Below, one piece after another: positions 22,778 to 40,625 of a DNA stretch of 64,000 bases; within the stretch, counting starts at the first letter, position 1, and each line of letters starts with the position of its first letter. The translations under genes and the position numbers were made by a program. A model generated the notes under the pieces. It did no database searches, had not been told where the DNA came from, and was given only the letters and a program-made list of their open reading frames with translations. The DNA lies in assembly GCA_034421095.1 (NCBI GenBank), contig DAOUKR010000015.1, positions 17,283 to 81,282 of the forward strand. The letters run 5' to 3'. The stretch comes from Dehalococcoidia bacterium (GTDB taxonomy: Bacteria; Chloroflexota; Dehalococcoidia; Lucifugimonadales; JAGWBF01).

Positions 22778-22855
22778 TGGCGCGCTTGGCGGGACTCGAA
22801 CCCACGACCTCATCCTCCGCAGGGATGCGCTCTATCCAACCTGAGCTACAAGCGC
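22778..22855 (-). tRNA. tRNA-Arg, anticodon read as GCG
   Basis: Cloverleaf folded by hand: acceptor GCGCTTG/CAAGCGC, anticodon stem CATCC/GGATG, loop CTGCGGA, T-loop TTCGAGT, encoded CCA. Confidence 0.85.
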
Positions 22856-22893
22856 GTTTGGGGGGCTAGCTACCTGACATGCGTGATGTACGA

Positions 22894-22979
22894 TGGTGCC
22901 GAGGGTGGGATTTGAACCCACACGCCCGTACGGGCACTACGCCCTGAACGTAGCGCGTCTGCCGTTCCGCCACCTCGGC
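22894..22979 (-). tRNA. tRNA-Leu (CAG), long variable arm
   Basis: GCCGAGGTGGCGGAA...loop TTCAGGG...variable arm TGCCCGTACGGGCGT...TTCAAAT...CACCA. Closely parallels E. coli tRNA-Leu(CAG). Confidence 0.9.
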
Positions 22980-23059
22980 CCACTTGATACAGGGACAACC
23001 GGGTACACGTTGGGAAGCTATCGCATTATATACCCGCTCCCCTGCCCAGGGTAAGTGAA

Positions 23060-23135
23060 TGGTGGGCGATAGAGGATTTGAACCTCTGGCCTCCTCGGTG
23101 TGAACGAGGCGCTCTAACCACTGAGCTAACCGCCC
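23060..23135 (-). tRNA. tRNA-Val (CAC)
   Basis: GGGCGGTTAGCTCAGTGGTTAGAGC, anticodon stem CCTCG/CGAGG, loop TTCACAC, T-loop TTCAAAT, CCA encoded. Confidence 0.9.
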
Positions 23136-36465: not shown

Positions 36466-38991
36466 ATGAAGGATACGATGGATAAAAGTGTGAGACAGCT
36501 ACACCTCCCCGTGGAGGGTATGACCTGCGCCGCCTGTGTGTCCCACGTGGAGGGTGCGTTAAAGGGTGTGCCCGGCATATCCTCGGCACAGGTCAATCTG
36601 GCGACCGAGAAGGCCGCCGTAGAGGTGGACCCGGAGATTGTATCTCTTGAGGAGTTGGTCAAGGCCGTAGATGACGTGGGGTATGCCGTCACCGTGGAGA
36701 AGGCCAACCTGAACATAGGGGGTATGACCTGTGCCGCTTGCGTGTCCCACGTGGAGAACGCACTGAAAGAGGTGGACGGCGTCGTCGCGGTCAATGTGAA
36801 CCTGGCTACGGAGAAGGCATCGGTGGAGTACATACCGGGGGTGGCGTCGTTCCAGGGGTTCCGTGACGCCGTGGACGACGTGGGGTACACCGTCGAGGGC
36901 ATGGCCGAGGACGACTATGGCGAAAAGGATGAGTTGGAACGACTGGCCAGGGTCAAGGAGATTAGCGCCCTTCGCAACAAGCTTACCGTCTCCGCTGTTC
37001 TTGCAGTTGTCATCTTTCTGGGCAGCTTCCACTGGTTCCCCTGGGTGTCCGGCCTTATGGACCGGGCCTATTACCCATTTCTGCTGTGGGCGCTGGCAAC
37101 CCCGGTGCAGTTCTGGGCAGGCTGGGCCTTCTACGCCTCCGGCTTCGGTTCACTGAGACACCGGGTCGCCAACATGCACACCCTCATAGCCCTGGGGACT
37201 AGCGTTGCCTATGGGTACAGCGTGGCCGTCGTATTTTTCCGGACCCTGTCTCCGGAGACGTTGTCCGTCCGGGGCATAGAAAGCTCCGTATATTTTGACA
37301 CCTCGGCGATTATCATCACCCTCATACTTCTTGGACGCTTCCTTGAGGCCAGGGCAAAGGTGCAGACTTCCCAGGCCATCCGCCGCCTCATGGGGCTGAG
37401 ACCGAACACCGCCAGGGTGGTCCGCGACGGTCAGGAGGAGGATCTGCCGGTGGATAAGGTGTTGCCCGGCGACGTCATAGTGGTGCGCCCAGGCGAGAAG
37501 ATAGCCGTGGACGGGGAGGTGGTCGAGGGGTACTCTTCCATAGACGAGTCCATGCTCACCGGCGAGAGTATGCCAGTGGAGAAAGCCGAGGGTTCTCCAG
37601 TATATGGGGCCACCATAAACAAGACCGGCATGTTCCGGTTCCGCGCCACCAGGGTAGGGAAGGATACCCTCCTTTCCCAGATTATAGCCCTGGTTGAGGA
37701 TGCCCAAGGTTCCCGTGCTCCCATCCAGCGCCTGGCCGACGTGGTATCCGCCTATTTCGTGCCGTCAGTGCTGGGGATAGCGGGTGCGGCCTTCCTCTTC
37801 TGGCTGCTCCTGGGACCGGCGCCGGCGCTGACCTATGCCCTGCTGGTGATGGTAGCGGTGCTGATAATTGCCTGCCCCTGCGCACTGGGGCTGGCCACTC
37901 CCACGGCCATCATAGTGGGCATTGGGAAGGGGGCCGAGAGGGGGGTGCTTGTCAGGAGGGCTGAAACCCTTGAGATAGCCCACAAGGTCAACGTGGTCGT
38001 CCTGGACAAAACGGGGACCCTCACCGCAGGTCAGCCGTCGGTAACTGACCTCATCGCCGTCGTGGGCAGCGAAGATGAGCTTCTGAAGCTGGCGGCTTCC
38101 GTCGAGCGCGGCTCCGAGCATCCCCTGGGTGAGGCCATTGTGAGGGCCGCCCAGGACCGGGGAATAGCGCCGGATGATGTCAGAGACTTTGAGGCCATCC
38201 CCGGCCAGGGCATCCAGGCCCGAGTAAACGGCAACACCGTAGCCCTGGGGAATGCGGCCCTGATGGAGGCGAGAGGGCTGCACCTGGACGGCCTGGATTC
38301 CCTGGCGGTAGAGCTATCCAATCAGGGCAAGACCCCTGTATTTGTGGCCTCTGACGGGGTGGTCATAGGCGCCATTGCCGTGTCCGATACCCTGAAGCAG
38401 GAGGCAACGGAGGTTGTCTCCCGGCTCCACGGCATGGGCATGGAGGTCATCATGCTCACCGGCGACAGCCAGCGTACCGCCGAGGCCATAGCCGGCCGTC
38501 TGGCAGTAGACCGGGTTATCGCCCAGGTACTGCCCCGGAACAAGGCCGACGTGGTAAAGGAGCTTCAGAGTCAGGGCAACGTGGTGGCCATGGTGGGCGA
38601 CGGCATCAACGACGCCCCCGCCCTGGCTCAAGCAGACGTCGGCATAGCAATGGGCACAGGCACCGACGTGGCTATGGAATCGGCGGACATAACTCTCATG
38701 CGGGGCGACCTCAAAGGAATACTCACGGCCTTCGACCTTGGCAGGAGCACCATACGGACCATAAAGCAGAACCTGTTCTGGGCGTTCTTCTACAACACGG
38801 CCCTCATCCCCGTGGCTGCCGGAGTGCTCTACCCTCTGTTCCACAGTCTGGGGGGCGTCCCGTCCGGCTTGGGCTTCTTCTTTGGCGACCTGGGCTTTCT
38901 GAACCCTGTCTTGGCAGCCCTGGCTATGGCCTTCAGCTCGGTGACGGTGGTGAGCAACTCCCTCAGGCTGGGGCGGCTAAAGCTGGATTAG
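36466..38991 (+). CDS. copA: Copper-translocating P1B-type ATPase with two N-terminal HMA domains
   Basis: Two 'GMTCAACV' metal-binding domains, 'TGES', '[10 protein letters not shown]', 'DKTGTLT', 'GDGINDAP'. Confidence 0.95.
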
Positions 38992-39030
38992 GCCATATAC
39001 AGTTGCAAGCAAAATCAGGAGGTGTCCCTC

Positions 39031-39183
39031 ATGGCTATAGACCCGATATGTTTTATGGAAGTAGACATACAGAATCCCCCCGGCGGCAAGACCGAGTATA
39101 AAGGTGAGACCTACTATTTCTGTGCCCCCGGGTGCAAGCGGCTCTTCGAGAGGGACCCGGAGAAGTATCTGGGCAAGAGCTAG
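39031..39183 (+). CDS. YHS/TRASH-domain mini-protein (50 aa), absent from the ORF track because it is under 60 aa
   Basis: 'DPICFMEV...[25 protein letters not shown]'. ATG follows AGGAGG at the correct spacing. Confidence 0.7.
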
Positions 39184-39262
39184 ACCGCTCCTGCGCTATC
39201 TCATATACTAGAGTAGTCCTCCCTAGGGTCATTCCCGTAAGTCCCTAGTAGGCTCGCAGGAG

Positions 39263-40003
39263 ATGATAATGGCTAGAAACACTGTGACCTTTGCTCTGGG
39301 TGGGCGAGTTGAAATTCAAAAGCTAAACAAGGGAATCAGTGTGCTTTCTCGGCTTATCACTGCCCTCACACATCCGTCGGATGTAGTCTGGGTTGTGGAA
39401 GACCTGCAGCCTGGTAGCGCTGTGGCAACTCTCCGTGGCGAAGCTGACGACCCTGAGAAAATAGAGCGCATAGTTGACGATTATGGAAATATCGGCGGTC
39501 TGCTGGAACGTCAGGAAAGCCTACAGTACGGTAGAAGGATTGTCCAAGCCGCCAATGCAATCAGAGAGTTGGCGCAAACCGTTGAATACGTGCGGCTTGA
39601 AACTCCGGATGACGATTACACGATTTATGGTAATGGACGAGCCAGGGAGAGAAGTCTAACCAAAAGTGTAGGGGCAATTACCGGCAGGGTACAGACTTTG
39701 AGCAACAGGGGCGGTTTGAGATTCAACTTGTATGATACCGTGCACGACCGGGCAGTTGGATGTTATCTGGAGCGGGGCCAAGAAGAACTTATGCGTGAGG
39801 CGTGGGGGCGACGGGCCCGTGTCAGTGGCAGGGTATCGCGAGAACTGGCAAATGGCCGGCCCGTAGTAATCCGACAGATACTCGCCGTGGAAGTGCTTGA
39901 AGACATTGCTCCAGGGTCGTATCGCCGTGCTAGAGGGGCCGTTCCGTGGAACGTTGGAGACAAGATGCCTGAAGAAGTCATACGTCAGTTGAGAGATGCC
40001 TAG
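39263..40003 (+). CDS. Hypothetical 244-246-aa protein, candidate partner/antitoxin of the downstream PIN protein
   Basis: ATG 39269 follows GCAGGAG. The stop overlaps the PIN start by 8 nt (ATGCCTAG). The second half looks OB-fold-like ('ITGRVQTLSNRGGLRFNLYD...VSGRVSRE...'). No known motif. Confidence 0.5.
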   Translation: MIMARNTVTFALGGRVEIQKLNKGISVLSRLITALTHPSDVVWVVEDLQPGSAVATLRGEADDPEKIERIVDDYGNIGGLLERQESLQYGRRIVQAANAIRELAQTVEYVRLETPDDDYTIYGNGRARERSLTKSVGAITGRVQTLSNRGGLRFNLYDTVHDRAVGCYLERGQEELMREAWGRRARVSGRVSRELANGRPVVIRQILAVEVLEDIAPGSYRRARGAVPWNVGDKMPEEVIRQLRDA

Positions 40004-40493
40004 TCGACGCAAGGTAATTTATTGGGATGCGTGCTGCTGTCTTTCGTACATCAATGAGATAGCGGACCGCTTACCGATTCTGGACGCATTATTGGGAGAT
40101 AGCGCCGGCGAAAGCGGAGGCATTCGGCTTTACACTTCTGCACTCTCGAAGGTGGAAGTGTCATTCTCGGTGACGGAACAGAAGAAACAAGCTCTCGACA
40201 CCGAGACAGAGGGGCGCATCGAAAGCCTCTGGTCTGACCCTGATGCCTTGATCACCGTGGAGTATCATGATGGAATTGGACAGAATGCCAGAGGTTTGAT
40301 TCGGACCGCCATTACACGAGGTTGGAGCTTGAAGCCCCTTGACGCTATACACTTGGCTACGGCTCAATGGCTGTCAGGCCTTGGGCTTGAGGTTGACGAG
40401 TTCCACACGTACGATGACCGTCTCTTCAGGTGGGCCCCAATCGTAGGTTTCAAAATCCTTGTACCATATACACCCCAACCCCAACTGCTTTAG
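39996..40493 (+). CDS. PIN-domain protein (VapC-like toxin)
   Basis: Acidic PIN positions 'VIYWDACC', 'SKVEVSF', 'LDAIHLATA', 'HTYDDRL'. Confidence 0.75.
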   Translation: MPSRRKVIYWDACCCLSYINEIADRLPILDALLGDSAGESGGIRLYTSALSKVEVSFSVTEQKKQALDTETEGRIESLWSDPDALITVEYHDGIGQNARGLIRTAITRGWSLKPLDAIHLATAQWLSGLGLEVDEFHTYDDRLFRWAPIVGFKILVPYTPQPQLL

Positions 40494-40537: not shown

Positions 40538-40625
40538 TGGCGGAGGGGGTGGGATTCGAACCCACGAACCCCGGAGGGTTAACGGTTTTCAAGACCGCCG
40601 CCATCGTCCACTCGGCCACCCCTCC
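40538..40625 (-). tRNA. tRNA-Ser (UGA)
   Basis: GGAGGGGTGGCCGAGTGG..., anticodon loop CTTGAAA, long variable arm, TTCGAAT T-loop, CCA encoded. Parallels E. coli tRNA-Ser(UGA). Confidence 0.9.

Follow-up and report, generated by a model that had tools for sequence, protein, structure and literature searches.

We analyzed a 64,000-nucleotide (nt) stretch of a Dehalococcoidia contig (DAOUKR010000015.1, positions 17,283 to 81,282; here called the window) and examined in it two overlapping genes, of which the second encodes a PIN-domain protein and the first a 244-amino-acid (aa) protein, which we call the partner. The two genes constitute a real and widespread module whose linkage is nearly absolute, and the pair cannot be a chance arrangement because the same architecture recurs in approximately 145 independent loci. 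The pair is probably a type II toxin-antitoxin-like module, in which a large antitoxin of a new kind neutralizes the PIN ribonuclease (RNase) through its C-terminal tail. The partner family and its architecture are undescribed in the family libraries that we searched and in the literature that we found; the PIN toxin itself is ordinary.

Gene layout and linkage of the pair

The features that define the pair in the window are as follows.

39258-39261, forward strand: Shine-Dalgarno sequence GGAG, 7 nt 5′ of the ATG at 39269, read from the sequence
39269-40003, forward strand: partner gene, 244 aa, putative antitoxin of an uncharacterized family
39996-40003, forward strand: overlap of the partner stop and the PIN start, 8 nt, ATGCCTAG, with translational coupling proposed
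39996-40493, forward strand: PIN gene, 165 aa, predicted VapC-type PIN-domain nuclease

A preliminary description of this DNA had given the partner about 245 aa. The open reading frame (ORF) does exist, and from its first in-frame ATG, at 39263, it encodes 246 aa (39263-40003, forward strand), but the likeliest start is the ATG at 39269, which gives 244 aa, because an alignment of 36 homologs begins at codon 3 of the ORF and the GGAG lies 7 nt before this ATG. The same GCAGGAG context is also found 5′ of the start codon in many homologous loci. As for the PIN ORF, the public gene call (P0121) places its start at an internal TTG, 32 codons later, and yields 133 aa. We take the 165-aa form to be the correct one, because the shorter call would drop the invariant residue D11, and the family alignment agrees with this choice.

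To describe the linkage we used two sets of loci, individual members of which are cited with the prefix L. The partner-led scan covered one genome per species and found 61 loci, distributed over 60 assemblies; all of these were metagenome-assembled genomes of Dehalococcoidia with essentially a single locus each, and a PIN homolog lay directly downstream of the partner in 52 of the 61. The PIN-led set comprised 80 metagenome loci with 34 to 55% identity to the window PIN protein; the partner was directly upstream and on the same strand in all 78 that could be tested, the other two having less than 70 nt of upstream contig. Co-occurrence across genomes was thus borne out from both sides, and distant members (37 to 45% identity) had the same gene arrangement. 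Of 93 intact pairs, 61 overlapped by 8 nt, 23 by 11 nt, and 4 by 14 nt. The 8-nt overlap and the antitoxin-toxin-like layout noted in the preliminary description were therefore not only present in the window but strictly conserved (88 of the 93 pairs have one of these three lengths), and a coupled bicistron with the antitoxin-type gene first is found in the window and its relatives alike.

Decay of the pair was asymmetric, in that the partner sometimes occurred without a PIN gene and the reverse was never seen. Two loci retained an intact partner with the PIN gene gone (L017 and L020), two had an intact partner followed by a PIN remnant of about 30 codons (L002 and L012), and in L046 an insertion sequence (IS) element took the place of the PIN gene. 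On the other hand, no PIN gene without at least the partner tail was found among the 78 testable loci. In toxin-antitoxin systems, the toxin does not occur without its antitoxin, while orphan antitoxins are tolerated; the corresponding figures here were 0 of 78 loci and at least 4 loci.

Predicted folds and conservation of the two proteins

The AlphaFold2 model of the PIN protein (predicted local distance difference test score [pLDDT], 89.9) had a three-layer α/β/α PIN fold with a parallel sheet. A Foldseek search of this model against the Protein Data Bank (PDB) gave 23 matches at an E value of ≤0.001, nearly all of them VapC, FitB, or archaeal PIN proteins, with target-normalized template modeling (TM) scores of 0.67 to 0.81. 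The best matches included the Shigella and F-plasmid VapC proteins, several M. tuberculosis VapCs, and FitB (examples of the closest structures are 5ecw, 9h6a, and 2bsq), and Nob1 and HARP ranked far lower. Most of the 587 PIN homologs carry PF01850 according to precomputed matches. The acidic residues were located by alignment.

40026-40028, forward strand: D11
40155-40157, forward strand: E54
40341-40343, forward strand: D116
40413-40415, forward strand: D140

In 26 homologs, D11 and E54 were invariant, and D116 and D140 were kept in at least 90%; the window protein has all four. The complete acidic site on which the preliminary description depended is thus present, and, as modeled, the downstream product is a VapC-type PIN nuclease with its catalytic site complete.

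The partner, in contrast to what is expected of a classical VapB, showed no RHH, AbrB, PHD, or HTH domain in Pfam searches of the window protein and 36 family members, as the preliminary description had maintained for RHH, AbrB, and HTH. It had no match of any kind in Pfam (the window protein at an E value of ≤1, 10 distant members, and 36 alignment members at ≤10), in NCBIfam or PADLOC at an E value of ≤1, or in PHROGs and among PDB sequences (two profiles). A homolog search nevertheless returned 403 proteins at an E value of ≤0.001, the best 120 of the 403 ranging from 1.4e-153 to 3.0e-88. Clustering at 50% identity leaves at least 1330 representatives of the family, of which 443 have an E value of ≤1e-30 and nearly all a length of 245 to 265 aa; they come mostly from uncultured Chloroflexota and from soil or sediment metagenomes. 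Members of 305 to 352 aa were considered as domain fusions and rejected, since they proved to be mis-called upstream starts.

The AlphaFold2 model of the partner (pLDDT, 78; predicted TM score, 0.74) divides it into four parts, with residues numbered in the 246-aa ORF.

39281-39628, forward strand: N-terminal α/β region, residues 7-122 (AlphaFold2)
39656-39895, forward strand: OB-fold barrel, residues 132-211, motif SNRGGLRFNLYD (AlphaFold2 and Foldseek)
39896-39967, forward strand: linker, predicted disordered, motif PGSY-R-x-A-R-G-A-V-P-W, pLDDT of <50 at residues 215-227
39968-40000, forward strand: C-terminal helix, P-E-E-x-I-R-x-L-R-D-A, helix 236-245 in the model, proposed PIN-binding element

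The N-terminal region (pLDDT, approximately 70 to 95) runs in the order β-α-β-β-α, followed by a helix and two strands, and had weak Foldseek matches to dimeric ferredoxin-like α+β proteins (2op5 and 1q8b). The second domain is built from strands 132-146, 153-158, and 163-168, helix 174-180, and strands 184-194 and 200-211, that is, β1-β3, α, β4-β5, the topology of a five-stranded closed barrel in which a helix separates strands 3 and 4. With the whole partner as the query, Foldseek found in the PDB only matches at the level of single domains; those of the barrel were to the anticodon-binding N-terminal OB domain of LysRS, the single-stranded DNA-binding protein SSB (3eiv), a cold-shock domain (1wfq), and Stn1, at probabilities of 0.87 to 0.99 but E values of only about 0.02 to 0.07. 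The OB-like pattern that had been read from the second half of the protein is upheld by the modeled barrel and by these matches. Conserved Arg and aromatic residues of the barrel are R147, F152, Y155, R176, W179, R191, and R202 (here and below in the 244-aa numbering); these residues are what points to a possible binding of single-stranded DNA or RNA.

The preliminary description had also singled out the C-terminal tail as a candidate toxin-binding peptide, which fits what we found: the tail is the best-conserved part of the protein, is predicted to be disordered, and is the only part common to the truncated partners that retain a PIN gene. Mean pairwise identity among the 93 partners was 57 to 59% in the C-terminal helix, 50% in the OB domain, and 28% in the middle. 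Nine tail residues (Y218, A221, R222, G223, E235, I238, R239, R242, and D243) were kept in 73 to 92 of the 93 proteins, with the linker residues Y218, A221, R222, and G223 in 73 to 91 and the helix residues E235, R239, and R242 in 89 to 92. The last two residues of the partner are constrained because the PIN start codon overlaps them; E235, R239, and R242 are free of that constraint. A tail that is conserved yet disordered in the monomer model is what would be expected of an element that folds upon binding.

Two truncated forms are suggestive in the same sense. In L122 (2529-2999), a 156-aa partner consists of the OB domain and the tail only, and the PIN gene that follows it is intact, with none of the four acidic residues lost. 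In L081 (404-538), a 44-aa ORF has kept just the last OB strand and the tail, and it overlaps by 8 nt an intact PIN gene, again with all four acidic residues.

In the mechanism that we propose, the pair would be an autonomous, mobile operon that resembles type II toxin-antitoxin systems. Its PIN product, presumably toxic when free, would be a Mg2+-dependent VapC-type endoribonuclease, to judge by its fold and its four acidic residues. The 244-aa partner would be synthesized first, and the 8-nt overlap would couple translation of the PIN gene to that of the partner. The last 30 to 40 residues of the partner, comprising a Y-x-x-A-R-G motif and an E-x-x-I-R-x-x-R-D-A helix and predicted to be disordered alone, would fold onto the active-site groove of the PIN protein and obstruct it, by analogy with the C termini of VapB and FitA. 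In the solved VapBC and FitAB complexes, the C-terminal helix of the antitoxin lies in the PIN groove and disturbs the catalytic site (Matelska 2017, PMC5499597). The N-terminal α/β domain and the OB barrel would be accessory to neutralization; most likely they would serve dimerization and nucleic-acid binding in a regulatory or sensing role and so control the release of the nuclease.

Several observations weigh against this mechanism. The partner has no recognizable DNA-binding domain that could serve autoregulation. The window PIN protein falls slightly under the Pfam gathering threshold (PF01850; E value of 3e-4, 21.8 bits versus a cutoff of 23.6). Each truncated form of the partner comes from a single metagenome contig and may reflect decay of the locus or faulty assembly. 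Covariation across the 93 pairs (mutual information with average product correction) was uninformative and gave as its top signals A244-P2 of the partner and the PIN protein, respectively, which is trivial because the codons overlap, and the gap-rich PIN loop 127-131. Finally, the partner diverges at no greater rate than the PIN protein (mean identity among the 93 pairs, 42% and 44%, respectively), and its OB domain is strongly conserved, a pattern that is atypical of classical antitoxins and points to a separate function of the partner.

Genomic context and competing explanations

The module behaves as a mobile unit, which is supported by its low G+C content at third codon positions (GC3), by the varied contexts of its 80 to 86% identical relatives, and by IS1595 neighbors. 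GC3 was 0.50 and 0.56 in the two genes versus 0.69 to 0.77 in the neighboring genes. Overall G+C was 52.6% over the pair and 51 to 55% in 400-nt windows, with a mean of 58.4% in the window, where the pair stands at the 5th percentile; the spot values of 43 to 50% given in the preliminary description were too low. In the closest relative, L146, whose partner is 92% identical, copA and ABC-transporter genes flank the pair as they do in the window, and relatives at 86%, 84%, and 80% identity lie in three unrelated chromosomal contexts. No neighboring gene is shared generally across the approximately 145 loci.

Horizontal acquisition, as proposed earlier, is therefore supported by the low GC3 and the varied contexts, but the part of that proposal that made the adjacent tRNA gene an integration site did not stand.

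40538-40625, reverse strand: tRNA-Ser(UGA), its 3′ end 44 nt past the PIN stop

The pair does lie just beyond the 3′ end of this gene, as had been described. However, tRNA-linked integration was rejected, as neither a direct repeat of the tRNA 3′ end flanking the pair nor an integrase was found. No tRNA gene directly followed the PIN gene in 60 scanned loci, of which two had a tRNA-Gly gene approximately 165 nt 5′ of the partner and three had one at a distance of over 3 kb. That the pair adjoins tRNA-Ser in the window is incidental. Elsewhere in the window, genes for tRNA-Arg(GCG), tRNA-Leu(CAG), and tRNA-Val(CAC) are clustered at 22778-23135 on the reverse strand; they are unrelated to the pair.

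Neighbors with a role in restriction recur in a minority of loci. A type IIG restriction-modification gene lies directly downstream of the pair, in convergent orientation, in 16 to 17 Dehalococcoidia loci (L008, L009, L011, L017, L020, L023-L025, L033, L038, L041, L042, L044, L045, L050, and L051); the enzyme, of approximately 975 to 1130 aa, has N6_Mtase and Eco57I domains and matches the PADLOC model REase_MTase_IIG (E value of 7e-50), for example at L058:5230-8622 (reverse strand). Methyltransferase-HNH fusions were found near the pair in five to six loci (including L021, L057, and L062), methyltransferase-Mrr and SIR2_2 genes stand beside it in L064 (the enzyme of L064 and L065, which had clustered with these enzymes, being a methyltransferase-Mrr fusion), and HTH-ImmA/IrrE, PaREP1, and NYN genes are further minority neighbors. 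All of these speak for an abortive-infection anti-phage module, in which the partner would be both inhibitor and sensor: its OB domain would bind a phage nucleic acid or protein, the tail would be released, and the freed PIN nuclease would cut tRNA, rRNA, or mRNA. Such a module would elaborate the toxin-antitoxin reading and is compatible with it. The strongly conserved surface residues of the OB domain point the same way, as does a likeness to phage proteins. Against predicted viral structures, Foldseek found the only whole-length structural matches of the partner, three uncharacterized proteins with E values of 5e-9 to 4e-7 and a probability of 1.0, namely, A0A8S5QA00 (annotated as DUF6575-containing), A0A8S5T657, and Q6NE06 of Leptospira phage LE1. 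DUF6575 is a domain named in a validated anti-phage defense system of E. coli (PMC9519451).

However, these three matches were weak in overlay (TM scores of 0.31 to 0.38, root mean square deviation of approximately 20 Å, and identity of 8 to 11%), and Pfam found DUF6575 in none of 36 partner-family members; the modeled resemblance to phage and DUF6575 proteins is a lead. In addition, neither the PIN protein nor the partner matched a defense model in a PADLOC 2.0 scan at an E value of ≤1, and most of the approximately 145 loci, the window included, lie outside recognizable defense islands. The partner was not found in plasmid records, phage records, or viral contigs, and the type IIG association may stem from shared ancestry in one clade. 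On balance, we regard an anti-phage role as rather unlikely. In a neighboring proposal, the partner would be a sensor antitoxin whose OB domain binds nucleic acid (phage single-stranded DNA or RNA, or damaged or uncharged tRNA) and thereby frees the tail from the PIN nuclease. The pair would then be a ligand-gated RNase serving defense or transposon stabilization, which we hold to be unlikely.

Two kinds of neighbor were recorded at individual loci. A divergent gene for an NYN-domain protein (PF01936, a PIN-like nuclease) lies just 5′ of the partner at L017:3027-3656 and L046:3044-3673 (both reverse strand); the two loci are related, both are without a PIN gene, and both have the NYN neighbor. 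A membrane protein of approximately 230 to 360 aa is encoded near the pair in seven loci, including L017:5058-5780 (reverse strand) and L009:2304-3395 (forward strand); in some cases its gene separates the pair from that of the type IIG enzyme. It had no confident Pfam match, with a sub-threshold match to TrbC in L009 only.

Rrp44/Dis3 combines PIN and CSD/S1 domains in cis. By analogy with this protein or with PIN-TRAM proteins, the pair might be a two-subunit ribonuclease, in which the OB protein would be an RNA-binding specificity subunit feeding the PIN nuclease for RNA processing or quality control. The combination of a PIN nuclease with an OB-family nucleic-acid-binding module is known from the PIN-TRAM protein YacL/COG4956 (PIN.COG4956; Matelska 2017, PMC5499597), and such an enzyme would agree with the highly conserved OB residues, the similar rates of the two proteins, the occurrence of the pair essentially once in each genome (61 loci, 60 assemblies), and the stoichiometric co-translation implied by the overlap. 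However, unlike in PIN-TRAM proteins and Rrp44/Dis3, the OB domain here is on a separate, upstream-encoded polypeptide with an antitoxin-type tail, and sequence models of TRAM, S1, and cold-shock domains detected no similarity to the partner. Orphan partners occur and orphan PIN genes never do, tail-only partners still accompany an intact PIN gene, and the closest PIN structures are all toxins, with the processing nucleases Nob1 and HARP far below them. A housekeeping enzyme is also a poor fit because the distribution is patchy, the contexts are varied, the G+C content is atypical, and IS elements are nearby. We consider a two-subunit ribonuclease quite improbable.

The IS association itself concerns transposases of the IS1595 family (Zn_ribbon_IS1595 and DDE_Tnp_IS1595 domains), which in at least seven loci lie 30 to 100 nt 5′ of the partner on the same strand.

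L147:3992-4933, same strand as the partner: IS1595 transposase
L063:3009-3971, same strand: IS1595 transposase
L086:96-1043, same strand: IS1595 transposase
L118:144-1055, same strand: IS1595 transposase
L106:2-613, same strand: IS1595 transposase
L091:292-894, same strand: IS1595 transposase
L075:2-517, same strand: IS1595 transposase
L120:968-1858, inverted: IS1595 transposase
L121:4-252, inverted: IS1595 transposase
L148:4578-4808, and also L001: IS1595 remnants

The loci so linked are deeply divergent from one another, and the association must be old or have arisen repeatedly, because the transposases are only 33 to 51% identical to each other. The pair may thus be a recurrent passenger of the IS1595 family or a preferred target for it. 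That it is, as such, a passenger or addiction module of an IS1595-family transposon, of which the window copy would have lost its transposase, is very improbable, since a transposase accompanies only about 6 to 7% of the loci, no terminal inverted repeats above the shuffle level bound the transposase alone or the transposase with the pair, the divergences of transposase and partner are uncorrelated, and the window holds neither a transposase nor a remnant.

Among the signals flanking the pair in the window, one resembles a promoter.

39181-39209, forward strand: promoter-like site TAGACC, 17 nt, TATACT, 5′ of the partner gene, from a consensus scan only

This site is weak evidence because sites of this kind are no more frequent in the region than expected from shuffled sequences. 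Positions 39194-39204, in the promoter region, match positions 40054-40064 of the PIN gene over 11 nt in inverted orientation; shuffles reach 12 nt, and the match was rejected as being at chance level. An Rfam search of the pair region gave no match. A stem-loop in the 5′ untranslated region (UTR), with its 3′ arm abutting or overlapping the Shine-Dalgarno sequence, was seen in approximately 15 to 20 loci, with differing stem sequences and loop lengths (e.g., GCAAG...CTTGCAGGAG or GCGAG...CTCGC); these include the window (39210-39268) and L002, L003, L005, L008, L009, L011, L015, L020, L024, L026, L040, L043, L058, L060, and L061. However, the folding energy of the 5′ UTR in 58 loci was no better than that of control segments (z of -0.37 versus -0.20, P = 0.40), and a conserved hairpin is an unproven lead.

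Upstream of the pair, at 36466-39183, the window encodes a copper P-type ATPase (copA) and a YHS protein, and genes for an ABC transporter lie beyond tRNA-Ser. The ATPase, of 841 aa, has two N-terminal CxxC metal-binding repeats, and the YHS-domain protein that follows it has 53 aa (PF04945, E value of 6e-14); together they make an ordinary metal-homeostasis pair.

Relation to known systems and significance

VapBC modules outnumber all other toxin-antitoxin families, and their antitoxins are as a rule small proteins that bind DNA. The pair shares with VapBC and FitAB a VapC-like PIN fold with a D/E/D/D acidic site (PF01850), a partner gene placed upstream with overlapping stop and start codons, and a partner that ends in a predicted disordered segment and a helix, like the helix that VapB and FitA place in the PIN groove (PMC5499597). 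It differs from them in several respects: the partner has 244 aa versus approximately 70 to 90 aa for VapB, it is built of an α/β domain and an OB barrel instead of an RHH, AbrB, PHD, or HTH domain, it is as conserved as the toxin, and the overlap is 8, 11, or 14 nt versus the usual 1 or 4 nt. We class the pair as VapBC-like in its working and do not count the partner as a member of the VapB family, because it has no RHH, AbrB, or HTH domain.

The concept of a large, multidomain antitoxin is generally known from DarG, AbiEi, the PanA-containing antitoxins, and the CapRel-type fused sensors, in which a domain besides the neutralizing element has its own function, often in defense islands (PMC10440598). 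No sequence or domain relation of the partner to the DarG, AbiEi, PanA, or CapRel families was detected.

What sets the present case apart is a PIN subfamily strictly tied to a 244-aa, two-domain, OB-containing partner without a solved relative. If the tail neutralizes and the OB domain gates, the pair would represent a new antitoxin architecture, with ligand-controlled release of the toxin as a possibility. The full-length partners, those reduced to the OB domain and the tail, and those reduced to the tail form a natural truncation series, which is a ready-made experimental design.

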